A stretch of DNA of 64,000 bases from a bacterium (GTDB taxonomy: Bacteria > UBA10199 > 2-02-FULL-44-16 > JAAZCA01). The stretch covers positions 12,369 to 76,368 of the forward strand of contig JAJZQH010000014.1 of the NCBI GenBank assembly GCA_021810905.1, read 5' to 3'. A program made the position numbers and the translations under genes. The notes under the pieces were generated by a model that worked only from the letters and a program-made list of their open reading frames with translations, was not told where the DNA came from and did no database searches. How positions within the stretch are numbered: position 1 is the stretch's first letter; each line of letters starts with the position of its first letter. Positions 3,650-61,642 of the stretch are shown piece by piece.

Positions 3650-3874
3650 ATGATGAAAAACGTCGGCAATACGGATAAGTTGTTGCGCGTGATTCTCGGA
3701 CTTGCGATCTTCTATCTGGGCTACACATACAAGAGCTGGTGGGGTCTCGTGGGCTTCGCTCCGATCCTCACCGCTGTTTTCAGTTTCTGCCCAGCCTATG
3801 CGCTCTTCAAGATAAACACCTGCTGCAAGAAGGGCGAAGGCCAAGGAAAGGGCGGATGCTGCTGCGGAGGCTGA
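3650..3874 (+). CDS. DUF2892 (YgaP-like) small inner-membrane protein with Cys/Gly-rich C-terminal tail
   Basis: MMKNVGNTDKLLRVILGLAIFYLGYTY..WWGLVGFAPILTAVFSFCPAYALFKINTC matches the DUF2892 pattern. AAAGGGGG ribosome-binding site precedes ATG 3650. The tail reads CCKKGEGQGKGGCCCGG. Confidence 0.7.
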   Translation: MMKNVGNTDKLLRVILGLAIFYLGYTYKSWWGLVGFAPILTAVFSFCPAYALFKINTCCKKGEGQGKGGCCCGG

Positions 3875-3875
3875 T

Positions 3876-4772
3876 GTGGGTTTCAAGGCAGGGTACGTCG
3901 CGATAATCGGCAGGCCGAACGTGGGCAAGTCCACGCTGCTCAACGCCATCCTCGGCGAGCGGCTAGCCATAGTTACGCCCAAGCCGCAGACTACGCGTCA
4001 CCGCATCGTGGGGATTCTCAACGAGCCGGACGTGCAGGTCGTCTTTCTGGACACGCCCGGCTATCATCGTTCCGACAAACCGCTCAATCAGGCGATGAAC
4101 GAGATCGTAGATATGGTCATCCACGACGCGGACGTGGTCTGCCTCATGCTCGACGCATCGTCCAGCGACCTGCGCATCGAGCGCGGGCTCTTCGATCGCA
4201 TAGGCAGGGATCGCTGCATCCTCGTCGCCAACAAATCCGACCTCGTCGATCGCAAGAAGTTCGACGAGATCGCGCACCGCTTCCGCGACGATTGGAACGC
4301 GAACGAGATGGTCTTTCTCTCGGCGCTAAGGAACGAGGGCGTTCGCACGCTCATCGACGCGATCACCGCGCGCATGCCCGAGGGCGAGGCTTTTTTCCCT
4401 GACGACATCTACACGAGCCATCCCGTGCGCTTCATAGCGGCCGAACTCATCCGCGAGCAGCTCTTTTTGCAGATGCACCAGGAGATTCCTTATTCCACTG
4501 CGGTGGAGATAGAGGAATTCAAGGACGCCACCGAGAACGATCCGATAACGCGCATCAAAGCGTCGATCGTCGTTGAGAAGGAGTCGCAGAAGGCGATGGT
4601 GATAGGAAAGGGCGGCACGCGCATCCGCGAGATCGGCACCCGCGCGCGCAAGGCGATCGAGGAGCTGGTGGGCGGCAAGGTCTTCCTCGACCTCAACGTG
4701 AGGGTGGAGAAGGACTGGACCAAAGACCCCGACGCCATCCGCCGCCTGGGTTACTCATCACAGATGGAGTGA
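3876..4772 (+). CDS. era: GTPase Era
   Basis: G1 motif IIGRPNVGKSTLLN, G3 motif DTPG, G4 motif NKSD, and a C-terminal KH domain. Start codon abuts the previous stop. Confidence 0.92.
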   Translation: MGFKAGYVAIIGRPNVGKSTLLNAILGERLAIVTPKPQTTRHRIVGILNEPDVQVVFLDTPGYHRSDKPLNQAMNEIVDMVIHDADVVCLMLDASSSDLRIERGLFDRIGRDRCILVANKSDLVDRKKFDEIAHRFRDDWNANEMVFLSALRNEGVRTLIDAITARMPEGEAFFPDDIYTSHPVRFIAAELIREQLFLQMHQEIPYSTAVEIEEFKDATENDPITRIKASIVVEKESQKAMVIGKGGTRIREIGTRARKAIEELVGGKVFLDLNVRVEKDWTKDPDAIRRLGYSSQME

Positions 4773-7205: not shown

Positions 7206-7434
7206 GCACAACACATGAGGATCATGGTTTCGGGTCCTGTCGCCGGCCACCCCCATTTGTGACCTTCCGATAGGATTGTTGTACAATGCTGAAATGCCGC
7301 AGCGTGGGTTCCGCGCTGCGGCCGGCATCGCCGCATCTATCACAACTTTATGCGGGCATCGAAGGCGGCTGCTGGCGTCAAATGGGGGTCCCCCGTCCAG
7401 CGCCACCCAAAACCATGATCCTCATGTGTTGTGA
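7206..7434. repeat. 229-nt long-hairpin element with 24-25 nt terminal inverted repeats (MITE-like or structured RNA)
   Basis: GCACAACACATGAGGATCATGGTTT at 7206-7230 is the reverse complement of 7410-7434 (24 of 25 match). Interior is further self-complementary (CCACCCCCATTTG with CAAATGGGGG). Starts on the first base after the stop of the upstream gene. Confidence 0.6.
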
Positions 7435-7505
7435 CAGTTGCACTGATGAATTCCCTAGGTTGCCGAAACGTTATGAACGGAGTCAACCTTACGTTTGGCA
7501 CTTGA

Positions 7506-7774
7506 GCGGTGCAGCTATTCGGCCTGGAGTTTATTGGCGGGCATCGCGTAGAGAGCCGTCTTTGTCGGCGAGCGGTTGCCGGTCGTGCCAGAGTAGAAGC
7601 CCGGGTTGCACGACGCCGAGGCTGTTCGAGCCTGCGAAAGCGGTTTTTTTTAGAGGTAAAGACTTCTTTTGCTTTCGCAGGCGAGTTCCGAGGCGAGGCA
7701 ACCCGAGTCCGTTACAAAGACGTGCGAACGGAGCGCCGCCCGACGATAAACTCCAGGCCGAATAGCTGCACCGC
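7506..7774. repeat. 269-nt element closed by 24-nt perfect inverted repeats, with internal 12-bp hairpin
   Basis: GCGGTGCAGCTATTCGGCCTGGAG at 7506-7529 is the reverse complement of 7751-7774. Internal hairpin GCCTGCGAAAGC with a 29-nt U-rich loop and GCTTTCGCAGGC at 7630-7682. Lies in the convergent gap about 50 nt from the gltB stop. Confidence 0.6.
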
Positions 7775-7822
7775 CTTGGTGCCAATCTGCGTGTTGACTT
7801 CGTTCATAACGTCTCGCCGCGC

Positions 7823-10800
7823 TTACCGCGGAGTCACTAGGATGAAACGGGTGGAGGTTTCCTGCCAGGTGTCCAGCAGGCTGCGGGCTTGCGGGCTCTT
7901 TGTATCATTATAATAGTCAGTCAGGATCTCCCTGAGCGCATCTGTCTTGCCCGGTTCGTCCGCGAGAGATATTGCCGTCACGTCGGAATGCAGGCGCTCG
8001 CGCGCGCTGCCGTCCGGATCAAAGAGATATATCTCTCCGCCGGTCATGCCTGAGCCGACGCAGGGTCCGCATCTGCCGAGCACCACGCCAGTGCCGCCTG
8101 TCATGTATTCGAACGCGTATTTGCCGACCCCCTCGCAGATCAGCAGCGCGCCAGAGTTGCGCACTCCAAAGCGCTGGCCAGCCCTGCCGGCGATATAGAG
8201 ACGACCGCCTGTTGCACCGTATGCAGCGGAATTGCCGACGAGGTGTGGAGCGCAATCGCCTCCAACCCCGGCAGGCGGCGCAATCACGACGCTCGCATTG
8301 CCGCTCATCGCCTCTGCGACGCCGTCGTTTGCAAAGCCGTCGAGCCTTAGGGTCATGCCGTCCGTCGCGGCAAAGCCGAATCCATGTCCGGAATAGCCCT
8401 TGGCGTGGATCTCAATTCGTTCCGCGGTTTCTGCCACCCTCTCCCTTGATGGGAGAGGGAAGGGTGAGGGTGCATCCGATCTCAGCCTGGCTATTTCTCC
8501 TGCAAGCGTTGCGCCCACGGCGTGGTCGCCGTTGCAAAGCGATATGCGTATCGGCGCATTCCCGGCGCGTCCGTCGAACACGGCGCGGGCGGAAGAGAGG
8601 ATCTCGGCGTTCCTTGCGGATACGGCACGAAATTCCGTTTGAACACATCGTGCAGTGCGCGCCTCGCCATGGAAGTACATGAGCATATCCGTGAAATCGA
8701 GACGATCCCAGCGCGCCATACCTGATACGCGAGGTTTCAAGAGATCCACGCGGCCCACGAGTTCGCGCGGGTGTGTGAGGCCCAACGTAGCGAGTATGTT
8801 CCTTAAGTCGTCGCCCATGCATTCGAGATAGCGGATCACGCCGCTTTTTGCTTCATTATATCGATCCATCGCTGCTGCTTCATCGGGATGCACTCCCTTG
8901 AGATAGCCGCGCATGAAGCGTTTGTTCTGTTTTTCCTCGTCCTGCGTCGCGATGCCCACCGGGCAGTTGCCCTTGTTGCACCCACGGCAGAATATGCAGC
9001 ACTCGGCCACGAGGAGCGGCGTGCCTATGGAGACTTCATCGGCGCCGAGCGCGATGATCTTTGCCGCATCCATGCCGCACTTGATGCCGCCGTCCGCGCG
9101 CACGCGCACGCGCGAGCGGATTCCGTTTACGACAAGATATTGATGCAGCTCGGAGACGCCGCGTTCGATCGGCAGTCCCGCGTGCGAGATGCTGCCGGAG
9201 CTCGCGGCGCCGGTGCCGCCCTCAAAGCCGCTCACCACGATCACGTCGGCGCCTGCCTTTGCAACTCCAACGCCGATCGTCCCGAGATTTGTGACCGATG
9301 GAACCTTGACCGACACGATTGCTTCAGGATGCAGCTCGCGGAGATTGGTGATCAGCTGTGCAAGATCCTCGATGCTGTAGATGTCATGATGCGGGGGAGG
9401 GCTGATGAGATCCACGCCAGGCTTCGTCTTTCTGATGCGCGCGATTTCCTCGGTGACTTTTCTGCCGGGCAGGTGGCCGCCCTCGCCGGGCTTGGCGCCC
9501 TGGCCGATCTTTATCTCGATCTCGTCCGCGTGTACGAGATACGTGGCGTCCACGCCGAACCTGCCGGACGCGATCTGGCGGATCCTGCTGCGATCGGAGG
9601 CCCACTCGCCGTCCTGGTTTCGACGCTCGTCTTCTCCGCCCTCGCCGGAGCATGAGGCTGCATCGAAGTGGTTGAAGGCCGACGCTATGGCGCGATGTGC
9701 CGTCGAGTTGAGCGCACCGTGCGACATGGCTGCCCCGCGTATCGTACTCCTTACGATCTCTCTTGTGTCCGCGACTTTTTCGAGATGCGGCGGCATGTCG
9801 CTTTTTTTGAATTCGAGCATGTCGCGCAGATATACGGGAGGTGTATCTTCAAGCAGTTTCACGAACCGGTCGTAGTCGCCGTTTGAATTTCCGTTGCGCG
9901 CAACGAGCTGGAGCGCGTCTGTCACTTCCTTGCGATAGACCGTCATGTTTTTGTTTCGCGCTATGGCATTCGAACCGACGGCCGAGCGTGCGACTGTGTC
10001 CTCGTAGATGTCGTCCATGGTGATGCCGCCGAGCCGCGAGACCGTATCCGGGATGTAGTATTCGACGACATCCGAAGAGATGCCGATCGCCTCGAAGAGC
10101 GCCGAGCCGCGATAACCGGTGAGAGTCGTGATGCCCATCTTCGACATGATGCGCCTCAGCGTGTGCACAACCGACTTCACAACGTTGGCGTACGCTTCGT
10201 CAGGTGGGATATCGGAAAAAGTCGTGGCCAGGTGCAGCATGGCGTACGGGTTCACGGCCGTGGCGCCGTAGGAGAGCAGGATCGCACAATCGTGGCCTTC
10301 GTGCGTGCTGCCCGTCTCGGCAATGATGCTGGCAAAGCGCCGGAGGCCCCTAGCGGCGAGCGCCTGATGGATGGAGCTCACAACGAGCAGCATGGGAACC
10401 GGCGGCCTTTCGCCGCGCGTGGCGGCGTAATCCGTAACAACGAGTATCGACGCCTCCTTGGAGCGTATCACGCGCACGGCTTCGTCGGTGAGGTCGTGTA
10501 TCCTTCTCACGATTTCGCGCGGGCTGCCTTTGTCGACGAAAGTCGCGTCGATCTCGTGCGCCTTTAGTTCAGAGATATCTGATGAGAGGATCGCCTGCAT
10601 CTGATCGTTCGTCAGTATCGGGTGATCCAACTTATACTGCGGCCACGACATGTAATCGCTGCGCCTGCTGATGCGCGGCGAGCGGCCCAGGTACACCGTA
10701 GTATCTATGGCGCCGCCCTCGCGCAGCGGATCGATGGGCGGATTTGTGACGACAGCAACGATCTGGTGAAGGAAGCTGTAGAGCCTGGAATGGTTTTCGC

Positions 10801-20522: not shown

Positions 20523-20600
20523 GTTATTGAAAATTGACTGTAAAGTCAAAGAGTTGCAGGTTGACAAGGGATGGGCGCTCTGTTACACGCCCGACAACAT

Positions 20601-20681
20601 AAAACGTCGTTCGTCGTTAGTCGTTCGTGAATCGTAAAGACCTCAGTCACTTGGGCGGTTTTACGATCGACGAACGACGAA
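20601..20681. repeat. TAGT-arm hairpin element, copy A (5-prime leader of yfgM-like gene)
   Basis: AAAACGTCGTTCGTCGTTAGTCGTTCGTGAATCGTAAAGACCTCAGTCACTTGGGCGGTTTTACGATCGACGAACGACGA. Arms and core are self-complementary. Homologous copies at 36618-36728 and 39975-40050. Confidence 0.65.
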
Positions 20682-20758
20682 GGAGGTGTCCAATTCCTAC
20701 CTATAAACAGCTGCCGCGCGGGAAGCAAAAAGCGCACGACGATTTCAAAGACTGGAGC

Positions 20759-24687: not shown

Positions 24688-24704
24688 AATCTTGTGACAA
24701 TCAA

Positions 24705-24794
24705 CCCCTCCCCTTTGTAAGGGGAGGATGGGAGAGGTAGACCGTGGATACAACCACGATCTACCTCCCCTCGCCCCTCCTTACAAAGGAGGGG
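24705..24794. repeat. REP-like palindromic element: two inverted units of CCCCTCC-TTTGTAA-GGAGGGG..GGGAGGTAGAYC
   Basis: Unit at 24705-24743, palindromic spacer GTGGATACAACCAC, inverted unit at 24758-24794. The same unit recurs at 57518-57555. Confidence 0.7.
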
Positions 24795-24817
24795 AATAAA
24801 TCGTCACTTATCACTGC

Positions 24818-26320: not shown

Positions 26321-26340
26321 ACTTAGTGATAGTATGGTGG

Positions 26341-26470
26341 TACGTTAGTACGTTAGTACGTTAGTACTTTCGTACGTTCGTTAAGCGTGTGAGCTGTCAG
26401 GTTTAGAACACCATGTTCGATCACGATCCTTTAACTAACGTACCAACGTACTAACGTACCAACGTACGAA
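26341..26470. repeat. inverted-repeat element with TACGTTAG tandem arms (divergent member of the TAGT-arm family)
   Basis: Left arm is TACGTTAG repeated about 3.5 times. Right arm is the reverse-complement pattern CTAACGTACCAACGTACTAACGTACCAACGTACG. About 70-nt core. Lies directly upstream of guaA. Confidence 0.55.
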
Positions 26471-26479
26471 GTTGATACC

Positions 26480-28021
<1,542 letters not shown>

Positions 28022-36618: not shown

Positions 36619-36728
36619 AAACCGTCGTTCGTCGTTAGTCGTTCGTCGATCGTGACGGCCTCAAGAACATGGACGTTTTTACGATCAACGCACCACGAAT
36701 TACGAACGACTAACGACTAACGACGAAA
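36618..36728. repeat. TAGT-arm hairpin element, copy B (fills the gap from the dnaE stop to the ribosome-binding site of the next gene)
   Basis: AAAACCGTCGTTCGTCGTTAGTCGTTCGTCGATCGTGACGGCCTCAAGAAC..GTTTTTACGATCAACG..CGAACGACTAACGACTAACGACGAAAC. Arms are reverse complements. Aligns with copy A. Confidence 0.65.
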
Positions 36729-36740
36729 CAAGGAGGCAAC

Positions 36741-37430
36741 ATGCATTCGAAGAAAGCAGTGGCAATGGCAGTGGCAGTGGCGTTCACGTTCGCGGCAGGC
36801 GCGGCGTTTGGCGCCAGCAAGAGGCCGCCTCAGTCGGGCGATATTGCCGCGGCAAACGAGCCCTCCCAGGCTCCGGCGCAGATGAGCAACCTACGCGTGT
36901 CGATCTACCCCGTGAAGACCGACGGTTTCACGCTGAATAAGAGCGAGGTCACGGAAATCCACCGCATCGCCATGCAGGCATGCTTTGACGCAGGTCTGCG
37001 CTGTTCGGGCAGGGGCGAGACGGTGGGCAACGTCCAGAAGGAGCAGTCGTACGAAGGACGCGGGCGCATCGCGCAGGCGCAGTACGTGGCCGAATTTACG
37101 CTCGTCGGCAAGACGCAGGACAAGGTCAAGCTCGGCCTCCCGGGCGGATTCCACGTCGGCGGCGGATATGGAACCAACTTCGGCGGCGGGGTCGTTGGCG
37201 GCGGCGTGTACACAGACCTCTCCGGTCTTGGAATCAAGATGGACGGCATGGAGCTGGTGGGGCAGATCTCCGATACCTCCGACGGGGCCCTTGTTTACTC
37301 CGATACGCAGAGCAAGCTTGCGCTGAGGGGGAGCTTCATAGTGGGAGAGGCGGGCGGATCAAACGCCAAAAAGCTGCTCAAGACGTTCCGACAGATGTTT
37401 GACGACTTCAGGGCGAGGATCGGTCGCTGA
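36741..37430 (+). CDS. secreted hypothetical protein (229 aa, Gly-rich)
   Basis: AAGGAGG ribosome-binding site. Signal peptide MHSKKAVAMAVAVAFTFAAGAAFGAS. Gly-rich stretch GGGYGTNFGGGVVGGGVY. Confidence 0.6.
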   Translation: MHSKKAVAMAVAVAFTFAAGAAFGASKRPPQSGDIAAANEPSQAPAQMSNLRVSIYPVKTDGFTLNKSEVTEIHRIAMQACFDAGLRCSGRGETVGNVQKEQSYEGRGRIAQAQYVAEFTLVGKTQDKVKLGLPGGFHVGGGYGTNFGGGVVGGGVYTDLSGLGIKMDGMELVGQISDTSDGALVYSDTQSKLALRGSFIVGEAGGSNAKKLLKTFRQMFDDFRARIGR

Positions 37431-39407: not shown

Positions 39408-39986
39408 ATGGAATTGACCGCGGCAAATATCCTAACCCTCTCGCGTCTGGTGCTGGCGCCGGTCTTTGTAGTCTTATTCGTGATCGGTCAATACGGCTGG
39501 GCGCTGGCGGTATTTATTTTCGCAGGCTTCACCGATCTCATAGACGGTACTGTTGCGCGCATGCTGAGGCAGCGCTCGCAGGGCGGCGCGCTGCTCGATC
39601 CAATCGCCGACAAGCTGCTGGTTCAGAGCTGCTTCATATCGCTTGCCTGGATCGGCGCGCTGCCCTGGTGGTTCGCCGCTCTCGCCCTTGCCCGCGACGT
39701 CATGATTGTAGGCGGGATATTCTACCTTGAACACGTGCGAGCGCCGCTCCCGTACAGGCCTGCGGTGATTTCGAAGTTCGCGACACTCTTCCAGATTGGT
39801 ACCGCCGTGCTGGGACTTGTGACGATCTGGAAGCCGGAGCTCATGATCTCGGGAGTGAGGGCAGATGAATTGCTCGTCTGGACGATCTACGCGACCGCGG
39901 CCCTGATAGTCGCCAGCGGCGCAAGATACGTATCCATGGGATTGCAGATACTCAGGCAGCATCGCCTTGGAAGCCGTAAATCGTAA
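39408..39986 (+). CDS. pgsA: CDP-diacylglycerol--glycerol-3-phosphate 3-phosphatidyltransferase
   Basis: CDP-alcohol phosphatidyltransferase motif DLIDGTVAR...GALLDPIADK with NILTLSRLVLAP at the start. An alternative start 27 nt upstream would overlap the previous gene. Confidence 0.85.
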   Translation: MELTAANILTLSRLVLAPVFVVLFVIGQYGWALAVFIFAGFTDLIDGTVARMLRQRSQGGALLDPIADKLLVQSCFISLAWIGALPWWFAALALARDVMIVGGIFYLEHVRAPLPYRPAVISKFATLFQIGTAVLGLVTIWKPELMISGVRADELLVWTIYATAALIVASGARYVSMGLQILRQHRLGSRKS

Positions 39987-40050
39987 ATCGTTAAAGACCT
40001 CCAGTTCCTGGGCGGTGTTACGAACCACGATCCACGAAACACGAACCGCG
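39975..40050. repeat. TAGT-arm hairpin element, copy C (degenerate; 5-prime leader of the metallophosphoesterase gene)
   Basis: CGTAAATCGTAAATCGTTAAAGACCTCCAGTTCCTGGGCGGTGTTACGAACCACGATCCACGAAACACGAACC. Shares the core ATCGT(T)AAAGACCTC..CTGGGCGGT(G/T)TTACGA with copies A and B. Confidence 0.5.
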
Positions 40051-43137: not shown

Positions 43138-43262
43138 CTCCCCGCGGCAAGCCGCGGGGAATCATCGGCAACATTTCCGATCACCCTCACCCTTCCCTCT
43201 CCCCTCAAGGGAGAGGGTGGCGGAAACCCCGCAGCAAGCTGCGGGGTTTCATCGGATTGGCA
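43138..43262. repeat. cluster of three REP-like hairpins
   Basis: Hairpin a: CCCCGCGG-CAAG-CCGCGGGG at 43140-43159. Hairpin b: 43171-43229, the near-identical copy of the gltB insert, with CCCTCTCCC-CTCAA-GGGAGAGGG. Hairpin c: AAACCCCGCAGC-AA-GCTGCGGGGTTT at 43224-43249. Hairpins a and c are followed by the related tails AATCATCGGCAA and TCATCGGATTGGCAA. Confidence 0.7.
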
Positions 43263-52377: not shown

Positions 52378-53186
52378 AGGGATTGATACTCGAGCCGAAA
52401 GAATCCGCTGCGGGGGTTGATATACGACTGACAGTACAGCGAGGGGTAAAAATTGAAAATCTTGTGCATCTCTGTTTTGGCGTCCTTCCAAAGGAAGGCG
52501 TTCAGGAAATTAACATCAATGCGCTGATTGAGGATGACGCCGGAGTTAAGCTTCTTGCCCATTGCGTCTTTCCCAATGCCGTTAAGGTGGTCCATAAAAT
52601 GTTGGCCGATATTACGATCGGCAACAACGCTTATTATGAATATAATGAGGTGCATCATCACGGCGAAGGCGGCGGCATCGAAGTTGTTCCAAAGGCGAAA
52701 ATCAGGGTTGGTAATAACAGCAGTCTGACGACGACATTTTCCCTACTCAAGGGCAGGGTGGGTGTATTCAATCTGGACTACGAAACGGAGGTCTTGGACC
52801 ATTCTTCACTTGATATGACGGCAAAGATCTACGGTTACGGTGACGACCAGATACTAATCAGAGAGGCTGGGCGCGTTATCGGCGAATCCTCTCGAGGCCT
52901 CCTCAAAAGCCGCGTTGCCCTGAAAGAGAATGCTATGTGCGAGATTGTCAACGAACTTACCGCCTCCGCCAGCGGCGCCAGGGGCCACGTTGACTGCGTG
53001 GAGATCATCCAGGGCAGCGCTACGGCAAAGGCCGTTCCTATCGTCCATGTGACGAACGAATTCGCGCAAGTCACCCACGAGGCAGCCATAGGCAGGGTGG
53101 ACAAAAAACAGGTTGAAACCCTGATGGCGCGGGGACTTGATGAAGAAAAGGCCATTGACGTCGTGGTTGGCGGATTTCTCAAGTAA
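52374..53186 (+). CDS. SufB/SufD-family beta-helix protein
   Basis: C-terminal SufBD signature GHVDCVEIIQG...HEAAIGRVDKKQVETLMARGLDEEKA..VVGGF. GTG start overlaps the SufC-like end. Confidence 0.7.
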   Translation: MKGLILEPKESAAGVDIRLTVQRGVKIENLVHLCFGVLPKEGVQEININALIEDDAGVKLLAHCVFPNAVKVVHKMLADITIGNNAYYEYNEVHHHGEGGGIEVVPKAKIRVGNNSSLTTTFSLLKGRVGVFNLDYETEVLDHSSLDMTAKIYGYGDDQILIREAGRVIGESSRGLLKSRVALKENAMCEIVNELTASASGARGHVDCVEIIQGSATAKAVPIVHVTNEFAQVTHEAAIGRVDKKQVETLMARGLDEEKAIDVVVGGFLK

Positions 53187-53206
53187 TTTCAAAACAGGGG
53201 GATAAT

Positions 53207-53575
53207 ATGAAAATAGCAATTCTCATGTGCGCATGCAGCGGGGTGTGTCCCAGTATGGCGAAGATCAATTTCTTCGATCTCATGGAAAGGTTGAGGCTCG
53301 AAGTGCCGCACGATTTCATGGTTTTGCACCCGCGCCTGTGCGAGGAAAACGGCGAGGCCCTTATGCGGGACCTGCTCAAGCCTGATACGGTCTACGTCAC
53401 GCCAGCCTGTAACGAAAAACATCAGATGAAGCTCCTTGCGGCCGGCTTTTCGAAGGCCGGCGTGCCCATGGATGATAAGCACTGGATTCCGGTGACGCTC
53501 GCGCAGAAGGACACCGACCAGGCGTTTGCGGATATCAAGGCCGCCGTTGAAAAGGCGAAGGGGATCGCGTCATGA
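53207..53575 (+). CDS. Cys-rich protein, tentatively MvhD/FlpD-like
   Basis: KIAILMCACSGVC ... FMVLHPRLCEENGEALMRDLLKPDTVYVTPAC follows the spacing of the FlpD pattern KIavFlCnwC ... VriirvpCsG...GADgVlv.gC. Weak, motif-level call only. Confidence 0.4.
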   Translation: MKIAILMCACSGVCPSMAKINFFDLMERLRLEVPHDFMVLHPRLCEENGEALMRDLLKPDTVYVTPACNEKHQMKLLAAGFSKAGVPMDDKHWIPVTLAQKDTDQAFADIKAAVEKAKGIAS

Positions 53576-53850
53576 AGAAGACCTACCTAGGCGTCCCGCG
53601 CGAAGAGATTCCGTGGTATCCCCATATCAACGCCGATCTGTGCACGTTGTGCGGTGCGTGCAAGGAGTTCTGCCCGAACGATGTGTTCGAGGCTGGCGTC
53701 GAGTGCATGCTCGTCAAGAATCCGATGAACTGCGTCGTCGCTTGCGACAAGTGCGCGGCTGAGTGCCCGATTGCGGCGATCTCATTCCCCGACAAGGCCC
53801 AGCTGCTCAAGTGGGTCGAGGAAGCCAAGAGCAAGAAAGGAACGACATGA
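53572..53850 (+). CDS. 2x[4Fe-4S] ferredoxin
   Basis: Two cluster motifs: CTLCGACKEFCP and CVVACDKCAAECP. Confidence 0.8.
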   Translation: MKKTYLGVPREEIPWYPHINADLCTLCGACKEFCPNDVFEAGVECMLVKNPMNCVVACDKCAAECPIAAISFPDKAQLLKWVEEAKSKKGTT

Positions 53851-54335
53851 AAGCGCGCAAAGCCATCAGAAACGCTTTGCGCATCGTCCTTTTGCTCATC
53901 GTCGCGGGGAGCGTCGGATATCTCTTCGCGAAGGATTACGTGTGGAACGGCGGCGAAATGCCTGCCCCTGTAGCCGCTCCTTCGGCCACGCCCGACCACG
54001 TCGTCGCTTACTATTTCCACAGCAATTTCCGCTGCGTGTCCTGCCGAGAGATCGAGGAATATTCCCGCGCGGCGATCGAGGAGGGCTTCCAGCTGGAGTT
54101 GAAAGACGGCCGCCTCTCGTTCGAGGTCGTCAATGTTGAGGAGCCGCAGAATCGCCATTTCATCCGTGACTACTCCCTTGTCACGAAGTCGTTGGTGCTA
54201 GTGCTCAAGGACGGCGACCGACAGGTGCGCTTCAAGAACCTCGATTTCGTCTGGCAGCTCCTTGGTTCTCCCGACCAATTCAAAATATATGTCCAGAATG
54301 AGGTCCGCGGATTTCTCGGTGAGGTGCGACGATGA
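53847..54335 (+). CDS. membrane-anchored thioredoxin-like CxxC protein (possible ArsF-like nitro-arsenical reductase subunit)
   Basis: Start set at MKARKAIRNALRIVLLLIVAGSVGYLF, an N-terminal transmembrane anchor. Thioredoxin-like YYFHSNFRCVSCREIE. Confidence 0.55.
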   Translation: MKARKAIRNALRIVLLLIVAGSVGYLFAKDYVWNGGEMPAPVAAPSATPDHVVAYYFHSNFRCVSCREIEEYSRAAIEEGFQLELKDGRLSFEVVNVEEPQNRHFIRDYSLVTKSLVLVLKDGDRQVRFKNLDFVWQLLGSPDQFKIYVQNEVRGFLGEVRR

Positions 54336-55015
54336 CGTTCCTCGGACTCCTCTCGGCCCTGTGGCTGGGACTCTTGACCTCCGTTTCTCCGTGTCCTCTT
54401 GCGACGAATGTCGCCGCTGTTTCCTTCGTCTCGCGACGTTTTTCAAATCATACAGCCGTGCTTTCGGCGGGGGTGCTCTACACGCTGGGGCGCGTTTTTA
54501 CCTACACGTTGCTCGGCGCATTCCTCGTCACAGGTCTCATCAATGCATCCCGCATCTCCTTCTTCCTGCAATTCTCTATTGGGAAATTCCTTGGCCCTGC
54601 GATGATCCTCGTAGGCATGGTTGTCTTGGATCTCATTAGAATTCCCCTCCCGAAGGGGAGGTGGCTCTCTCGCATGGAGGAACGCGCCGGACGATGGGGA
54701 CAACCCGGTTCGGTTGTCCTGGGCATCCTCTTCGCGATTATGTTTTGTCCCGTCTCGGCTGCGCTTTTCTTCGGTGGGTTGATTCCGCTTGCGGTAGAAC
54801 AGAAGTCGTCATTTCTCCTGCCAACGCTGTACGGGATCGGGACCGGTCTTCCGGTGGCACTCTTTGCCGTTTTCTTTGCAGTCGGTTTGAAGCGGGTGGG
54901 CAGGATCGTCCATCGCATGGCGAGCGTGGAAATATGGGCGCGTCGCGCGACAGGCGTCATCTTCATTCTTATCGGGCTGTACGAAACATATCTCGCTTTG
55001 CGAGGCGCTGCATGA
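54332..55015 (+). CDS. ccdA: CcdA/DsbD-family transmembrane thiol-disulfide electron transporter
   Basis: Conserved transmembrane Cys in LTSVSPCPLATN and a second in FCPVSAALFFGG. Six predicted transmembrane segments. Confidence 0.7.
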   Translation: MTFLGLLSALWLGLLTSVSPCPLATNVAAVSFVSRRFSNHTAVLSAGVLYTLGRVFTYTLLGAFLVTGLINASRISFFLQFSIGKFLGPAMILVGMVVLDLIRIPLPKGRWLSRMEERAGRWGQPGSVVLGILFAIMFCPVSAALFFGGLIPLAVEQKSSFLLPTLYGIGTGLPVALFAVFFAVGLKRVGRIVHRMASVEIWARRATGVIFILIGLYETYLALRGAA

Positions 55016-55032
55016 TCTGAAAGGAGCTGTTC

Positions 55033-55326
55033 ATGGAAATCAAAGTTCTCGGACCCGGATGCTCCAATTGTCAAACGCTGATCGAGCGCGTCGGAAAGGC
55101 CGTTCAAAAGGCGGGCGTCGAGGCGACGATCACCAAGGTGACGGATTACGACGAGATGCTCTCTTACGGCATCATGAGCACGCCTGGGCTCGTCATCGAT
55201 GGGAAGCTCATAATGAGCGGCAGGGTGCCGTCCGTTGACGAAATTACAAAATTGATCGCAGACACAAATGTGGCGGTGGCATCGGTGAGCGCTGGAGGCA
55301 AATGCAGCTGCGGCAGTTGCTGCTGA
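55033..55326 (+). CDS. small thioredoxin-family protein (redox-active disulfide protein 2 type) with Cys-rich tail
   Basis: MEIKVLGPGCSNCQTL matches the TM0983/MTH895-like CxxC thioredoxin pattern. C-terminal GGKCSCGSCC. Confidence 0.7.
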   Translation: MEIKVLGPGCSNCQTLIERVGKAVQKAGVEATITKVTDYDEMLSYGIMSTPGLVIDGKLIMSGRVPSVDEITKLIADTNVAVASVSAGGKCSCGSCC

Positions 55327-55337
55327 GAGGAGGAAAT

Positions 55338-55565
55338 ATGTCAGGAAGTTTACCGGATAATACTCGCGAACTGGTTGCAATGGCGGCTTCGGTTGCCTGC
55401 GGCTGTGAGCCCTGCCTCAAATACCATTACGACGCTGCTAAAAAAGCCGGTTGCAGCGTGAAAGAAATGACCGATGCGGTCGGTATCGCCATGATGGTCA
55501 AACAGGCACCGCTCAAAGCCATGGAAGAGCTCACACAACGATTAGGTATACGGAAGGGGGCATGA
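55338..55565 (+). CDS. AhpD-like (carboxymuconolactone decarboxylase family) protein
   Basis: VACGCEPCLKYH matches the AhpD-core CxxC motif. Strong GGAGGAAAT ribosome-binding site before ATG 55338. Confidence 0.65.
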   Translation: MSGSLPDNTRELVAMAASVACGCEPCLKYHYDAAKKAGCSVKEMTDAVGIAMMVKQAPLKAMEELTQRLGIRKGA

Positions 55566-55630
55566 GCCCCGGGTCATTTTGACGTCTTCTTGGCTGCTGA
55601 TGGACGCTCGTTCGTTCGGAAAGGTCTTTC

Positions 55631-56089
55631 ATGACGCGACTCAAGATATTGTTTCTCTGCACCGGCAACTCCTGCCGCAGCCAGATGGCGGAGGGATGGG
55701 CGAAGCATCTCCTTGGGGATGATGTCGAGGTATACTCCGCTGGCGTCGAGGCGCACGGACTCAATCCACGCGCGGTCAAGGTCATGGCCGAGGCGGGCGT
55801 GAACATATCCGGACAGAAATCGAAAACAATCGAGGAACTGGGCGATTCCACGTTCGATGTGGTCATAACGGTCTGCGACCGGGCGCGCGAGTCTTGCCCG
55901 ATCTTTCCCGGGAATGCTGAGAAGATCCATCGTTCTTTCGACGATCCGCCGAGCTTGGCCGAGGAAGCGAAAACCGAAGAGGAAGCCCTGGAGCACTACC
56001 GCCGCGTGCGCGATGAAATCCGCGCGTTCGTTGAAACATTGCTGGACATCTTGAACAACACGGGGAAAAAATCGGAAGAGCAGGCGTGA
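55631..56089 (+). CDS. arsC: arsenate reductase, LMW-PTP (thioredoxin-coupled) type
   Basis: P-loop [16 protein letters not shown], with downstream Cys in CDRARESCP. Confidence 0.88.
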
Positions 56090-56131
56090 ACAGACATCTC
56101 ACGCTGTAAATTTCGGGAAGATCCAGGAACG

Positions 56132-56560
56132 ATGAAAGATCAATACATCAAGAGCATTCTCTTTCTGTGTACGGGCAACGCCTGTCGCTCGCAGATGGCT
56201 GAAGGGTTTGCGCGTGAAATGCTGCCTCCGGGATGGCGGGTGTACAGCGCGGGAATTAAGGCGTCGGGCCTGAATCAGCGGGCGGCGGCGGTGATGAGCG
56301 AGGTCGGATTCGACATCTCAAGCCAGCGTTCAAAGACGCTGGACGAAATTCCCGTGGACGATATCGATTACGTGATCACGCTGTGCGGCCATGCGAGGGA
56401 CATGTGCCCAGTATTTCTACGTGCGGTGTTCACAGAGCACTGGCCGATAGACGACCCGATTCGATCCGAAGGAACGCCCATGGAGCAGCGGGTCTTTCGC
56501 AGTACGAGGGATGATATCCGGCGCCGCGTGCAGGACCTTGCGAGGCGTCTGAAGGGGTAG
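56132..56560 (+). CDS. arsC: second LMW-PTP-type arsenate reductase paralogue
   Basis: [16 protein letters not shown] and CGHARDMCP. Confidence 0.85.
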   Translation: MKDQYIKSILFLCTGNACRSQMAEGFAREMLPPGWRVYSAGIKASGLNQRAAAVMSEVGFDISSQRSKTLDEIPVDDIDYVITLCGHARDMCPVFLRAVFTEHWPIDDPIRSEGTPMEQRVFRSTRDDIRRRVQDLARRLKG

Positions 56561-56563
56561 TGA

Positions 56564-57511
56564 ATGTTCGATCTTATCGCCAGCAGGATCGTATACCGCC
56601 TGCTCTCATTCGAGCAAGGGACGTATGCAGGCGACGCCGTGCATTTTTTCGTCATGGACGTGATGAAGATCTTCGTGCTGCTCGCGGTCGTCATCACGCT
56701 CGTCAGCTATCTCCGCTCGTATTTTCCGGCGACGCGCTCGCGCATGTTGCTGGCCGGACGCAAGCGTTTCGGCTATCCCCTGGCCGGCGGCCTTGGAGTC
56801 CTGACTCCGTTCTGCTCGTGTTCGGCGGTGCCGATGTTCATAGGCTTCATCGAGGCCGGCATCCCGCTCGGCGTAACGATGACCTTTCTGATAGCGAGTC
56901 CCACCGTAAACGAGATAGCGATAGCGCTGCTCTTCGGGCTCTTCGGCTGGAAGGTGACGACTATCTATATAGCGAGCGGGCTCGCGATTGCGATCGTCGG
57001 CGGCATCATAATCGATGCGCTGAAGATGGAGAGGCACGTTGAGGACTACGTGTGGAATCTGCGCTTCGACAACGTGTCCGATGCGGTGATCCCTTCGCAG
57101 CGGGAGAGAATAGTACAGGCCGTCGCGCACATGCGTTCGATCATCTCGAAAATCTGGATATTCGTCTTCGTCGGCATCGGTATCGGCGCTACGATCCACG
57201 GTTTTGTCCCTGCATCGTGGATCGTGGAGCACTTGGGCGCCAGGCAGTGGTGGTCGGTGCCAGCGGCGGTGCTGATAGGCGTGCCGCTCTACGGCAACGC
57301 TGGCAGCACTCTCCCCGCGATTGGAGAGCTCATCGCCAAGGGCGTGCCGCTGGGCACGGCGCTGGCGCTCATGATGTCGATCACCGCGATCTCGCTGCCG
57401 GAACTCATCCTGTTGCGACGAGTGCTCAAACCCCGGCTGCTTGCGGTATTCGTAGGAATCGTTGCCGCGGCGATCGTCTGCGTGGGCTATCTCTTCAACG
57501 CGATCCTGTAA
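56564..57511 (+). CDS. arsP: ArsP-type permease (DUF318) with TPFCSCS motif
   Basis: Eight predicted transmembrane segments. Conserved VLTPFCSCSAVPMF, the motif reported for organoarsenical efflux permease ArsP (recalled from the literature, not searched). Confidence 0.75.
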   Translation: MFDLIASRIVYRLLSFEQGTYAGDAVHFFVMDVMKIFVLLAVVITLVSYLRSYFPATRSRMLLAGRKRFGYPLAGGLGVLTPFCSCSAVPMFIGFIEAGIPLGVTMTFLIASPTVNEIAIALLFGLFGWKVTTIYIASGLAIAIVGGIIIDALKMERHVEDYVWNLRFDNVSDAVIPSQRERIVQAVAHMRSIISKIWIFVFVGIGIGATIHGFVPASWIVEHLGARQWWSVPAAVLIGVPLYGNAGSTLPAIGELIAKGVPLGTALALMMSITAISLPELILLRRVLKPRLLAVFVGIVAAAIVCVGYLFNAIL

Positions 57512-57517
57512 ATATTA

Positions 57518-57555
57518 CCCCTCCTTTGTAAGGAGGGGTAGGGGAGGTAGATCCT
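57518..57555. repeat. REP-like unit CCCCTCC-TTTGTAA-GGAGGGG-TAGGGGAGGTAGATCC (same family as 24705-24794)
   Basis: Begins 7 nt after the arsP stop. Hairpin stem of 7 bp with a TTTGTAA loop. Near-identical to the inverted unit at 24758-24794. Confidence 0.7.
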
Positions 57556-57588
57556 TTCACTTCAAGTGGGGCAAGTTGACACGTCCAC

Positions 57589-58152
57589 GTGGATAAGGCT
57601 AAAACGCGCGGCATGGAAAACCTGATCAGGGAAATGCTCTCAAAGCTCGGCGAAGATCCTTCGCGCGAGGGGCTCCGCAAGACGCCAGCTCGCGTGAAGG
57701 AATCGCTCGGATTCCTGACCGAAGGTTATCGCCAGGACCCTCGCGCGCTCATCGAAAATTCTGTATATTCGGACAAGCACGAGGAGATGGTGCTCGTGCG
57801 GGATATTCCCATCTACAGCCTCTGCGAGCATCACCTGCTGCCGTTCTTCGGCACTGCGCACGTGGGTTACATTCCCAACGAAAAGATCGTGGGGATCTCC
57901 AAGATCGCGCGCATGGTCGATCTCTTCGCGCGCAGGCTCCAGGTGCAGGAGCGGCTCACCAATCAGATTGCTGAGACGCTCATGGAAGTACTCAAACCCA
58001 AGGGAGTGGCGGTAGTGATCGACGCGGAGCACCTCTGCATGCAGATGAGGGGAGTGCAGAAGCGCGGCACCTCGGTCGTCACATCCTCAATGCTCGGCGC
58101 GTTCCGCCGTAAGCCCGAGACGCGCGCGGAGTTCATGAATCTGATCAAGTAA
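57589..58152 (+). CDS. folE: GTP cyclohydrolase I
   Basis: CEHHLLPF and [16 protein letters not shown] are signature motifs. Start could be MENLIRE at 57613. Confidence 0.9.
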
Positions 58153-58191
58153 ATCCCAAATTTCAACAACCCAGTTCTAAACAATTTTCAA

Positions 58192-58234
58192 CCTCCAAAA
58201 AATCAAACAATATCCTGGTGTTTGATTTTTGGAG
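58192..58234. terminator. bidirectional rho-independent terminator between convergent folE and the HEAT-repeat gene
   Basis: CTCCAAAAAATCAAACA then loop then TGTTTGATTTTTGGAG. A-rich and T-rich on both sides, in an AT-rich 115-nt gap. Confidence 0.6.
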
Positions 58235-58267
58235 CTTTGAAATTTTGGTGCTTGAAATTTGATATCT

Positions 58268-59650
58268 TCAACGCCTTTTGATGAGTCCCCTTCGGGTAGC
58301 TCTGTCGAGCGCTTTGAGGCCGGTTTCAGCGTGCTGACTCATCCAGGGAAAGGTTGCCGTGACCGAGCGGATGGCCGAGGCGGCTGCTTCGCGAGCCTCT
58401 GCATTTTGGGGATTGTTCAGGGCGTTGATGAGCGGAGGAACCAAGGTTTCAGAGGCTGCGGAACATGTGGACAAAAACCTTTGCGATGACCAGGTATGGA
58501 TATGCTCAAGGGCCAGCGCTGATTCTTTGCGCACGTCCGGACTTGGATCCTTGAGTCCTGCGGTGAGTGAGGAGAAGACGGCTTTTGCACCACAGATTGG
58601 AGAAGTATTACCGAACCATCTGAGTTCGCCGAGGGCCCAGGCTGCGGCGGCGCGAACCGGCGCGCTTTGGTTATTTTGATTCTGGGTGAGGGCTGCCATC
58701 AGGGCCGGCCCGGCCGCATCGGCCTTCATCCGGCCGAGGGCCCACGCTGCTGCTGCACGAACGTTTGCCGTTTCGTGATCATCGTTCAGGACGTCGATCA
58801 GGGCAGGAATGGCCGCCGGAGCGTCAATCATGCCGAGGGAGCGAGCCGACGCCTCGCGAACTTTCGCGTCTGGATCGTTCTTCAAGGCTGCAATCAGGGT
58901 GACAGCGCGGGCAGGTTCGATCGAAGCGCCATCAGGGACACGCCCCATGCCCTGAGCCGCATTTTCGCGAACGGTTGCATCCTGATCATTCTTCAGGGCC
59001 GCCATCAGGGCTGTAATCCGGGCAGGCTCGGCCTGGCTGTCATTAAAGGTCTGGGCGAGGATCCGAACGGTCACCCTTCGAACGTTCACATCTGGATCCT
59101 GCAGTTTTGGGACGAGGGCGGGCACGGCGTCGGTTCCCAGCGGGCCGGTCAGCATGAGAGCCGCTTCTTGGCGAATGCCGCGGTTGGGATGCTTCAGCGC
59201 CGCCTCGACGAGGGCGGGGACAGCAACCGGACCCATCCTCATGATGACGCCGAGGGCTTTCGCAGCGTCCCTATCTTTCACGCTCCCTGAACGGCTCATA
59301 CACGTGAGGAGAGGGAGGACCGCCGCAGGACCGATGGCGACAAGGTCGAGGATTGCGCGCTCGACGCTGGCATCATCGGAACTCTTCAAGTCCTGAATGT
59401 ACCGTGTAATCTGGCGCTGCTGGACTTGTGGCCCTGTCCCGACCTGTGCCACCACGTTGCCGCTCCAGAAAGAAGGAACGAACTTGGCGCCAGGGAAGAA
59501 CTTGGCGTTGATCGATCCGGCCGTATGGAATTCACCGCTCGCCATGTTGTCGTCGGAAGCGCCTTTGAGCGCCGGCGCCGAAGGCGGCGGTGATGGAGGC
59601 ACGCCTCCAACCAGCGCATTCCTGACCGCTTCAAGATTCTGTGTCTTCAT
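58268..59650 (-). CDS. HEAT/PBS-lyase repeat protein
   Basis: Multiple repeats ending in VR..A..AL (VRENAAQGMGRV, VREASARSLGMI, VRAAAAWALGRM, VRRVTVRILAQ). N-terminal Pro-rich region. Confidence 0.65.
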   Translation of the reverse strand: MKTQNLEAVRNALVGGVPPSPPPSAPALKGASDDNMASGEFHTAGSINAKFFPGAKFVPSFWSGNVVAQVGTGPQVQQRQITRYIQDLKSSDDASVERAILDLVAIGPAAVLPLLTCMSRSGSVKDRDAAKALGVIMRMGPVAVPALVEAALKHPNRGIRQEAALMLTGPLGTDAVPALVPKLQDPDVNVRRVTVRILAQTFNDSQAEPARITALMAALKNDQDATVRENAAQGMGRVPDGASIEPARAVTLIAALKNDPDAKVREASARSLGMIDAPAAIPALIDVLNDDHETANVRAAAAWALGRMKADAAGPALMAALTQNQNNQSAPVRAAAAWALGELRWFGNTSPICGAKAVFSSLTAGLKDPSPDVRKESALALEHIHTWSSQRFLSTCSAASETLVPPLINALNNPQNAEAREAAASAIRSVTATFPWMSQHAETGLKALDRATRRGLIKRR

Positions 59651-60019
59651 CTTTTCCTCCCTGCTTTTCTCAAGCTATCTGAGAACTCAAGATGGAGCAA
59701 GTGTTGCACGTGTACTTCATGGAATAACGGCACTACGATCTTTCGCTTTGGCTGATGATTTCTCGCCCCTTGTTTTCGTCGATCGTGGCGAAATGTTGCT
59801 ATCAAATTGAGCTCTCCAGAAATAAGGTGATCAGAAAGCTCCGAACAGTTGGACATCCTGTGTCGGGAGGAACGGATTTTGTTGTTGAGATCGCTCTGAT
59901 ATTTCGAAATGTGAGGACTCTCGGAGATCCTCATCTTTTCCGAGCAACTTTTTCTGCGCCTGAGCGATAAGAGAGAGGATCCTCTTGCTTCCGGAATCGG
60001 AACGAGGGGAGGGTCGACC

Positions 60020-61642
60020 ATGGATATGATGAATACGACATCAAGCGGGTTTTGGATGTACTCCCTGGCTGTGGCTGCGGGTACGGAGGCAGAGTTGCCC
60101 GATTTTCCGCAAGAATCCGGCCAACCGGAATTCGCGGTGGCGGCAGATGACGGCGCGTCCTCGTCGTCGCTTGAAGCCCTGCCGCGCGATGTCACGGCAG
60201 GAAGGCCCTTCGGGCGCTCGGCCGCGCGCTTCGCCGCGGATGCATCAGCGCTTGAGGAGCTGGCGGGCCCGATCCTGACGCGTGAAGGAAAGGACAGCGC
60301 CGAATGCAACCGCCAGTTGACGGCATCTGGAAGTTCCCCCCTCGGGAACGTCGGGCGAAGGGATGGATCGGACGAACACGGCCTGCAATGTGCATCAAAG
60401 GGAGATCGCTCCAATGTCGTTCGCGAGGCGATCCAGGTTCTGCGCACGGATTTGCGCGCGACTGAGGCGGCTGGGAAGGAAGAGGAAGTGGCCTATCTGC
60501 GCTCGCGCGATGCGATCGCTGCTTTACTCAGGGTTCTGCGGGTTGGAGAGCGCGAATATGACGATGCTGCAGCGGAGAGGGCTTTTGTCCTGCGGGAACT
60601 GCTTCCGATCGCCCATCGCGTCTACGAAGAAATTGCGGCTCTCAAGAATCCAGCGAGGTTTTTTTTGCGCGGCTGGTTTGGGATCCAGGAGCTTCTCCCA
60701 CGGTATCAGGTCTCTGAGCTCTTTCCCCTTCTCACGGAATTCCCTCCGCCATTCCAGCGAGACGTGCTGAGCATGGTCCTGCGTGGGCCTGTTACATCCC
60801 ATGCGCCCAGAGAACTGGAGGCGTTTCTCGGGCGGCCTGAGGTCTTTGAGCATCTGCTTTTTCAGATACCTGCGTTCATGACCGAAGACAGACCAATTGT
60901 TTCATGTATTGATGGTGAAACGCTTCCTTCGGTCCTTCTCAAGAGGATCGTGAAGACGGATTTTGCCCTCAGGTTCCCTGCATTGTGGAAGGCGTTGGGG
61001 GCCGCATCGCTCGCTTCGTCCAGGATGGCGCTTGCCGTGATCGAGGCCTATTTGATGAGCGACCATAACAACGCACAGCCCTTTGTGAGGGGGATGGCGT
61101 CAGCGATCAGAAGCGGCGCGATCTCTTTGCCGGCTGCCCTGGCGACGCTGGACCGCATTCGCAAAGGGATGTCGGTTGAAGCCATCGCACCGCTCTCCTT
61201 TGACGGCGATCCGCTCGTCTCATCGCTGGCTGCCAGAGCTCTCGTGGTATGCGGCAACACGAAGAAGCTCGCGGATGTCGTGAAGGGGTGGATTCGGCGC
61301 GGTGCGTGGGAGAGGGCCTTTGAGACGATCAATGCGGCAACGGTATTTTCTCAGGGCGAAGAAGGAACGGTGTCGAGGCTGAAACCCCGGGAGATCGTGC
61401 TCTTCGTCTCCGTCGTCGAGCGGATGCTCGCGTCGGACAAACCTCGCCTGCGTTCGAGCGCCCTGACGCTCCTTCTGAGGATCGCGCCGGAGAGAGCGGA
61501 AGAAGCGCTTGTGGCAGCAGCCCGCGATTCGGATGCCGCCGTACGAAGGCGTGCGGAGGCATTGTCTGCCGCTCTTCCGCCATCACGGGATCAAGCCGCG
61601 GAAGATGAAGAGCGCGACGATGGCGATCCACTTCCCGAATAA
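60020..61642 (+). CDS. hypothetical protein with C-terminal HEAT-like repeats (540 aa)
   Basis: GGGGAGGG ribosome-binding site before ATG 60020. Ends in HEAT-like SSALTLLLRIAPERAEEALVAAARDSDAAVRRRAEAL. Divergent from the HEAT gene. Confidence 0.5.
   Translation: MDMMNTTSSGFWMYSLAVAAGTEAELPDFPQESGQPEFAVAADDGASSSSLEALPRDVTAGRPFGRSAARFAADASALEELAGPILTREGKDSAECNRQLTASGSSPLGNVGRRDGSDEHGLQCASKGDRSNVVREAIQVLRTDLRATEAAGKEEEVAYLRSRDAIAALLRVLRVGEREYDDAAAERAFVLRELLPIAHRVYEEIAALKNPARFFLRGWFGIQELLPRYQVSELFPLLTEFPPPFQRDVLSMVLRGPVTSHAPRELEAFLGRPEVFEHLLFQIPAFMTEDRPIVSCIDGETLPSVLLKRIVKTDFALRFPALWKALGAASLASSRMALAVIEAYLMSDHNNAQPFVRGMASAIRSGAISLPAALATLDRIRKGMSVEAIAPLSFDGDPLVSSLAARALVVCGNTKKLADVVKGWIRRGAWERAFETINAATVFSQGEEGTVSRLKPREIVLFVSVVERMLASDKPRLRSSALTLLLRIAPERAEEALVAAARDSDAAVRRRAEALSAALPPSRDQAAEDEERDDGDPLPE

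Follow-up and report, generated by a model that had tools for sequence, protein, structure and literature searches.

Among the long simple repeats of bacterial intergenic DNA, those with heptanucleotide units have for decades been known to be the most over-represented. Other short sequences are dispersed as discrete elements. Bacterial MITEs (Correia, ERIC, RUP) are short and dispersed, carry terminal inverted repeats and are often co-transcribed, and Correia elements are able to form RNase III substrates. In eukaryotes, the much larger Foldback elements have inverted arms made of tandem sub-repeats. The arms of REP sequences, for their part, carry a conserved GTAG head.

The over-representation of heptanucleotide repeats between bacterial genes is established, as is the hypothesis that attributes it to slippage (PMC4679880, PMC4692102). 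These two papers describe the LSSR (Mrazek 2007) and the cyanobacterial STRR (Mazel 1990) as long heptanucleotide repeats; in Xanthomonas, some of the GGGAATC repeats occur as inverted pairs able to form stem-loops (PMC4692102). TAACTGA repeats are present in marine Beggiatoaceae, Cyanobacteria and Bacteroidetes (MacGregor 2015, PMC4679880). In the Beggiatoaceae these arrays share a single orientation and closely precede start codons, the binding of a post-transcriptional regulator has been proposed for them, and 169 direct sets were counted for one indirect set (PMC4679880). In Haemophilus influenzae, the transcribed heptamer tract of hmw1A is one arm of a long 5'-UTR hairpin, the processing of which by RNase III raises expression (PMC12721329). 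Finally, REPINs are REP doublets that form hairpins and are mobilised by RAYT transposases (PMC3116915).

The window, that is to say the whole stretch of 64,000 nucleotides analysed here, had been read in an earlier note which reported four hairpins in the leaders of four genes. Sequence inspection confirmed the four hairpins (Table 1). On the sense strand, each of them immediately precedes a ribosome-binding site or start codon, and the observation that copy B fills the spacer from the dnaE stop codon to the next ribosome-binding site was also correct. The identities proposed for the neighbouring genes were borne out by Pfam and by syntenic relatives.

Table 1. Positions of the four elements, their parts and the adjoining expression signals in the window (unit copy numbers from Tandem Repeats Finder; L118, L123 and L256 are loci of relatives)
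Feature	Position	Strand	Remarks
Promoter-like block	20561-20589	+	TTGACA-N17-TACACG; upstream of copy A; conserved in L118, L256 and L123
Copy A	20605-20681	+	leader of the yfgM-like gene
Copy A, left arm	20605-20628	+	CGTCGTT x3.4
Copy A, core	about 20628-20668	+	
Copy A, right arm	20663-20681	+	ACGAACG x2.7
Native ribosome-binding site and probable start, yfgM-like gene	20681-20695	+	AAGGAGGTG; probable ATT start at 20693-20695; conserved in element-less relatives
Hairpin D	26334-26481	.	occupies the guaB-guaA spacer
Hairpin D, octamer arm 1	26340-26378		GTACGTTA x4.9
Hairpin D, octamer arm 2	about 26434-26467		AACGTACC x3.9 (tandem array at 26437-26467)
Copy B	36623-36727	+	occupies the spacer from the dnaE stop to the next ribosome-binding site
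Copy B, left arm	36623-36653	+	CGTCGTT x4.4
Copy B, core	about 36646-36686	+	
Copy B, proximal right arm	36682-36699	+	
Copy B, distal right arm	about 36700-36727	+	AACGACT x2.9 (tandem array at 36705-36724)
AAGGAGG and ATG, gene of the 229-aa secreted protein	36730-36743	+	downstream of copy B
Copy C	39975-40050	+	junction of the CDP-alcohol phosphatidyltransferase and metallophosphoesterase genes
Copy C, left arm	39975-39991	+	CGTAAAT x2.4; contains the stop codon of the upstream gene
Copy C, core	about 39984-40025	+	
Copy C, right arm	40020-40047	+	ACGAACC x4

One and the same foldback repeat, about 77-105 nt long and specific to the strain's lineage (NCBI GCA_027327785.1; source contig DAHVYM010000003.1), is represented by A, B and C. 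They have in common a 41-nt non-repetitive core (TGAATCGTAAAGACCTC..TGGGCGGTTTTACGATC) placed between inverted arms. When a profile of this core was searched with nhmmer, only A, B and C were retrieved in the window (E 8e-11 to 7e-10). The shared core claimed earlier thus holds for these three copies but not for hairpin D, which is devoid of it, and the core string quoted at that time is a composite of A and C. As to the arms, they are indeed short tandem arrays, but the units have a period of 7 in A-C and 8 in D, and are not the CGTTAG and TAGT first proposed. Tandem Repeats Finder gave period 7 for all the arms of A-C, with 2.4-4.4 copies of the unit, the heptamers being CGTCGTT/AGTCGTT, and CGTAAAT versus CCACGAW. 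An arm pattern (GTTMGTCGTTAGTCGTTCGT, with at most 3 mismatches) gave 7 matches against 0.02 expected, and a pattern joining the core and the right arm gave 3 against 0.06. The elements fall into an already described class, that of intergenic heptanucleotide simple-sequence repeats, which here are organised as palindromes.

The arms of copy B are 32 nt long and 88% complementary; those of A and C are shorter and imperfect, most of the right terminal repeat being absent from A. The left arm of copy C encodes the final three codons and the stop codon (39984-39986) of the upstream CDP-alcohol phosphatidyltransferase gene. Since the 41-nt core is present at three unlinked junctions, the sequence must have moved between sites rather than originated independently at each of them. 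Furthermore, A and B are identical at 24 of 24 positions in the left arm and at 29 of 40 in the core (Fisher p 0.0046), and from one copy to another the arms differ in length by a whole number of units. Identical arms around a diverged core, together with whole-unit differences, suggest that slippage and homogenisation of the arms took place on top of the copying. Copy B was identical in the window and in an independent Logan contig, and positions 52440-64000 of the window, which hold none of the four elements, were 100% identical in two further independent contigs; among these very few samples, no variation in repeat number was seen.

Hairpin D had been regarded as a divergent copy of the same family. 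This assignment could not be maintained, as D contains no A-C core, has no relative in any sequence compared and is single-copy in all of them. Hairpin D is a foldback independent of A-C, the arms of which are tandem octanucleotides. Its stem ends on the first two bases, A and T, of the guaA ATG (26480-26482). Being single-copy, this hairpin may have grown in place.

The elements lie in a cluster, der-brkB-yfgM-bamB-ompA-guaB-guaA-dnaE-hflX, which is syntenic in relatives and ancestrally compact. Among the loci of relatives compared are L118, L119, L122, L123, L256 and L257. By its DnaE homologues the window falls in an uncultured lineage whose MAGs are labelled Pseudomonadota or Deltaproteobacteria, and the nearest relatives are 77-82% identical. 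In these relatives, the equivalent junctions measure 0-8 nt or contain unrelated heptamer repeats or hairpins. In L118, guaB and guaA overlap and the dnaE-hflX gap is 5 nt; in L123 the gaps are 8, 1 and 5 nt and there is no period-7 array in 23 kb; the guaB-guaA gap is 0 nt in L257, and L122 has unrelated sequence 3' of dnaE. Such compact junctions indicate that B, C and D have been added in this lineage specifically. From the sequences compared, the elements can be taken to have arisen after the split from the sampled relatives, at sites that are otherwise 0-8-nt junctions or short leaders, and their absence from several orthologous junctions fits mobile or recently generated DNA. Because the ancestral junctions are so short, any tolerated insertion must fall between a stop codon and a ribosome-binding site. 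This gives an apparent preference for leaders, and is a simpler explanation than the genuine insertion preference first suggested.

Copy A has the yfgM-like (TPR_21) gene on one side and a divergent alpha/beta-hydrolase gene on the other. At this site, L118, L123 and L256 have kept the promoter-like block (TTGACA-N17-TA...), the GGAGGTG motif and the coding sequence, and lack element A. The conservation of GGAGGTG in element-less relatives means that the ribosome-binding site at A is native and not element-borne, and the earlier proposal that the element itself carries AAGGAGG was abandoned on this ground. The promoter-like block was missed by a consensus scan; it would put copy A at the 5' end of a transcript, and its conservation suggests that copy A is transcribed. 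The yfgM-like gene apparently has a non-AUG start. Amino-acid conservation begins at ATT in the window, at ATA in L118 and at ATC in L123, each 6 nt after GGAGGTG, and GTG is found at the same position in L256 (window, 20681-20695; L118, 2414-2427; L123, 2730-2743; L256, about 2566-2580). Downstream of copy B, the 229-aa secreted protein (36741-37430) has no Pfam match. Its gene and copy B are present between dnaE and hflX in this genome only; the gene is absent from this position in L118, L123 and L256, and relatives have a gap of 5-42 nt.

Some junctions of the relatives contain foldbacks or repeats of their own. In L118, a (GAAATTA)3 array is present in the yfgM leader (site A), and site C is occupied by a hairpin with AAATTCC/GGAATTT arms (z -4.6) which begins after a conserved H(R/K)L codon, at the same point as copy C. 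A hairpin upstream of guaA in L119 is about 79% like this L118 hairpin and represents a parallel family. In L256, a 64-nt hairpin containing GTACG is found at the guaB-guaA junction, i.e. at site D (z -4.4), and the guaA-dnaE junction contains a foldback with the CGT-anchored heptamers CGTATCT CGTATTT CGTGAAG CGTACCT before dnaE. It follows that the clade carries several lineage-specific families of the same architecture. As in LSSR and STRR, the number and the sequence of the units vary, both between A, B and C and between lineages (L118, L119, L256). Beyond the right end of the window, the same strain has further CGT-anchored heptamer arrays at 3854-3880 and 7254-7284 of locus L120 (CGTGAAT, ACGAATC). 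In L120, the region 7245-7290 (GGTTTTACGAATCACGAAT...) resembles a degenerate right half of the A-C element standing alone; it runs opposite to the genes on either side.

Repeats of other kinds were also seen. A second, unrelated G/C-rich palindromic family (CCCCTCCTTTGTAAGGAGGGG..GGGAGGTAGATC, CCCTCTCCC..GGGAGAGGG) is present in the window at 24694-24807, 57513-57553, 8423-8472 and 43182-43231; in one copy, located in the spacer that separates the ompA-like gene from guaB, the palindrome reaches 114 nt. Two large inverted repeats occur at 7207-7433 and 7464-7816 of the window, with 29-nt arms that are 97% complementary and 84-nt arms that are 81% complementary. Two assemblies of this strain (L253 and L254) disagree in their gene calls over 7207-7816, which suggests a polymorphism or an assembly problem at the repeats. 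In L118, a palindrome of about 250 nt lies between guaA and dnaE (9672-10001). Repeats of the type 'tcattgcgagg...cgaagcaatc' are common to L119 (7690-7800, 13490-13624) and to Omnitrophota loci (L002, L081).

The growth in place considered for hairpin D could be extended to all four elements. Local sequence would then have been amplified by slippage and duplicated in inverted orientation by template switching, nothing having moved between sites. Such an origin is in agreement with arms that differ by whole units, with the absence of target-site duplications (see below), with a single-copy hairpin D whose outer stem holds the local guaA start region, and with the smaller GTACG-containing hairpin of L256 at the same guaB-guaA junction. 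It would also agree with the loops of the (NGTCGTT)n hairpins of other genomes, which are unique to each site. However, it cannot account for the 41-nt non-repetitive core common to A, B and C at unlinked junctions. In addition, amplification of local sequence should yield units unrelated to one another, but those found in a given genome are related: they are CGT-anchored here and in L256, and of AAATT type in L118 and L119. We therefore hold an origin in situ of the whole set to be rather improbable.

The opposite proposal, a MITE family, had been put forward in the earlier note, and part of it stands: A-C constitute a dispersed palindrome whose orthologous sites are empty or different in L118, L123, L257 and L122. 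As in MITEs, terminal inverted repeats (24-32 nt) are present, the copies have a common interior, and presence or absence differs with respect to relatives. Moreover, in the wider class of heptamer-armed hairpins described below the polarity of the arms is fixed, as inverted terminal repeats would give. However, the target-site duplications that were to be looked for are not consistent: no common direct repeat flanks A, B and C, AAAC being found on both sides at B only, and none was detected at 24 hairpins of the wider class. Classical transposition is thus unsupported. Furthermore, copy A is truncated in its right terminal repeat, no transposase with matching ends is encoded within the approximately 79 kb of strain sequence, and the loops are not conserved in other genomes. 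To our knowledge, there is no autonomous element related to those described here. We consider it very unlikely that the copies are a classical MITE mobilised in trans by an insertion-sequence transposase recognising their terminal inverted repeats.

A covariance model (R1; 21 pairs) was built from A, B and C. With this model and the core profile, the search suggested in the earlier note added nothing to A, B and C, whether in the window, in some 15 kb of additional sequence from the same strain (L120 and L254, for a total strain coverage of about 79 kb), in six relatives or in 113 loci of other phyla. In the JGI metagenomes, the core pattern gave three matches, all due to chance and within coding regions, and BLAST of copy B against plasmids gave two trivial matches of 28-31 nt. 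The fate of paired positions was followed with RNAalifold on the three sequences A-C: 1 of the 21 pairs was compensatory and the covariation term was +0.56. In short, of the three observations named beforehand as adverse to the hairpin family, two were made, namely the lack of flanking direct repeats and the lack of covariation; yet the similarity cannot be reduced to low-complexity sequence.

Folding of the + strand was compared with that of shuffled sequence. The predicted free energies were -38.9 kcal/mol for A (z -3.9), -50.5 kcal/mol for B (z -5.7) and -55.4 kcal/mol for D (z -4.4). Copy C reached merely -23.9 kcal/mol (z +0.05), no better than shuffled sequence, and B, C and D fold slightly better as antisense than as sense; both observations leave an effect at the RNA level putative. 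Strand asymmetry (G-U versus A-C), taken as a sign of the functional strand, was mixed across the elements of the window. In the predicted folds, a heptamer tract is the arm of a hairpin in the putative leader, as in hmw1A. No ribosome-binding site pairs with an element in the predicted minimum-energy folds; where such a site is paired, its partner is downstream sequence. By consensus scan, no sigma-70 promoter or intrinsic terminator was detected inside any element, the overall counts being at background, and the GC-rich stem with a U tract that characterises intrinsic terminators is absent from all four. At the gathering threshold, Rfam models matched only a tRNA in the whole window. Around copy A, with E values up to 10, nothing credible was obtained beyond chance microRNA-like matches, and the heptamer hairpins of 17 loci of other phyla matched no family.

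These data bear on the cis-acting leader RNA which the earlier note had offered as an alternative to a MITE. A selected leader of the four genes, acting as a riboregulator or as a protein-binding structure, would account for the fact that, in the sense direction, all four elements are followed at once by a ribosome-binding site or start codon, for the folding of A, B and D far beyond that of shuffled sequence and for the location of A downstream of a conserved promoter-like block. However, such a leader is not conserved upstream of the orthologues in L118, L123, L257 and L122, the four genes are functionally unrelated, and the lack of an Rfam match, the single compensatory pair, the unfolded sense strand of C and the ribosome-binding sites that do not pair with the element all argue against it. 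A regulatory leader of this type appears quite unlikely.

The 20-mer common to the arms of A and B was found at no fewer than 113 loci in at least 10 phyla (one genome per species), for a few matches expected by chance on our own estimate. Among the 80 matches listed, about 46 come from Acidobacteriota (mainly Terriglobales) and 12 from Omnitrophota; the other matches listed belong to Gammaproteobacteria, Cyanobacteria, Bacteroidota, Planctomycetota, Chloroflexota, Firmicutes, Chlamydiota, Atribacterota and a Streptomyces. In the 113 loci, 7 is the dominant period of tandem repeats (303 of about 750 arrays), and 154 of these 303 arrays are other than AACGACN, with 120 different units among them. 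The loci contain 177 (NGTCGTT)n arrays of at least 3 units, 60 of which form the arms of 30 pairs. All 30 pairs read 5'-(NGTCGTT)n..(AACGACN)n-3', although they are not fully independent since some loci are orthologous. For solo arrays, a crude ORF test showed a long ORF starting at most 15 nt downstream in 29 cases with AACGACN in the sense orientation versus 8 with the other sense (p 0.0008). In L080, L094 and L102 (Terriglobales), (AACGACT)n ends directly at the nuoL ATG, with no Shine-Dalgarno sequence. Arrays were kept at orthologous sites in the pairs L098/L109, L011/L019 (adjoining a Moco riboswitch) and L038/L086. In our searches of the literature on heptamer repeats and their unit sequences, we found no description of GTCGTT/AACGAC arrays, no report of heptamer repeats in Acidobacteria and no foldback combining heptamer arms with a copied core.

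The orientation of the solo arrays, and the fact that they often abut an ATG with no room for a Shine-Dalgarno sequence, could be explained if the arrays were binding sites for a protein that reads about 7 nt per subunit, for instance a cold-shock-domain or S1-like protein on RNA, with the hairpin hiding or exposing the array close to the start codon. This has already been suggested for TAACTGA repeats (PMC4679880), and the units within the present genome share an anchor, TCGT/ACGA. However, there is no candidate protein, the units at one site are wholly different between close relatives, and the sense strand is the better-folding one in just 11 of 20 hairpins of other genomes (11 vs 9). In viral contigs, (AACGACT)3 gave 9 matches, no more than the permuted units (8 and 4), and (TAACTGA)3 gave at least 107. 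We thus regard arrays of binding sites as unlikely. The counts also led us to reject AACGACT as a special heptamer in viral contigs.

A broader interpretation is that heptamer-armed foldbacks are a type of genetic element or RNA signal which spans phyla and has so far gone unrecognised. It is suggested by arrays at no fewer than 113 loci in at least 10 phyla, by the polarity of 30 pairs out of 30, by the tendency of solo AACGACN arrays to be set against start codons, by the unrelated units found at a given junction in different lineages of this clade and by arms that look homogenised within a genome, and we put it forward as a doubtful possibility. The pattern would fit a mechanism dedicated to writing or copying heptamer arrays in one fixed polarity, and would equally fit an RNA-binding protein with a 7-nt register acting in translation initiation.

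The interpretation that we favour, with moderate confidence, is that A-C and D are recently acquired foldbacks of the heptanucleotide class, with a core that was copied in A-C, arms that slip, and co-transcription as long mRNA hairpins. According to this scheme, the arms would expand, contract and homogenise by replication slippage or gene conversion, and the copies would persist only where they fall downstream of a stop codon (or promoter) and ahead of the ribosome-binding site that follows. Once co-transcribed, A, B and D would fold as RNA hairpins of 20-35 bp just 5' of an unchanged native ribosome-binding site. By analogy with other systems, the likely effects would be a loss of the ancestral translational coupling (guaB-guaA, dnaE and the next gene), and either an entry site for the double-strand-specific RNase III or a 5'/3' stabiliser, for which the hmw1A leader of Haemophilus offers a precedent. 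A purely neutral version of this scheme leaves unexplained the fixed polarity of the arms, the placement at start codons in other phyla and the presence of unrelated foldbacks at one junction. Hairpins recurring at the same junctions across lineages and the strict arm polarity seen elsewhere hint at selection or at a directed mechanism.

In this genome, heptanucleotide repeats take the form of foldbacks with a copied core, newly inserted in the tight junctions of an essential cluster (guaB-guaA, dnaE, yfgM-bamB). If they are processed like the hmw1A leader, they would exemplify a general way for repeat DNA to rewire operon expression; if they are not, they would be a clear case of selfish repeats in the sole permissive sites of a compact genome.

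When the elements are compared with the described systems, they are short and dispersed with terminal inverted repeats like Correia, ERIC and RUP, and their arms are made of tandem sub-repeats like those of Foldback elements, but no consistent target-site duplication was found. With REPINs, they have in common an extragenic inverted doublet of about 100 nt, which is lineage-specific and non-autonomous and can form a hairpin in single-stranded DNA or mRNA; however, the arms of REP doublets are short imperfect palindromes, whereas Tandem Repeats Finder resolved the arms studied here into direct heptamer arrays. TAACTGA repeats resemble the present arrays in being heptamers in one orientation, a few nucleotides before the start codons of unrelated genes, and in their patchy distribution across phyla. 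They differ in their unit sequence and in being almost all direct, with no hairpins, and in the window a normal Shine-Dalgarno sequence follows A and B.

The closest likeness in composition is with LSSR and STRR, which also consist of intergenic 7-nt tandem units with a lineage-specific sequence and a variable number. In the present elements the arrays are short, with 2.4-4.4 units, and invariably come in pairs as the arms of a foldback; in A-C, these arms surround a conserved 41-nt core copied between sites. As regards the predicted RNA, in hmw1A the second arm is a G-rich non-repeat region and the locus is a single phase-variable one, not a dispersed family; in both cases, however, a heptamer tract forms the arm of a long hairpin adjoining a coding region, and by analogy the hmw1A mechanism could apply to the elements described here.
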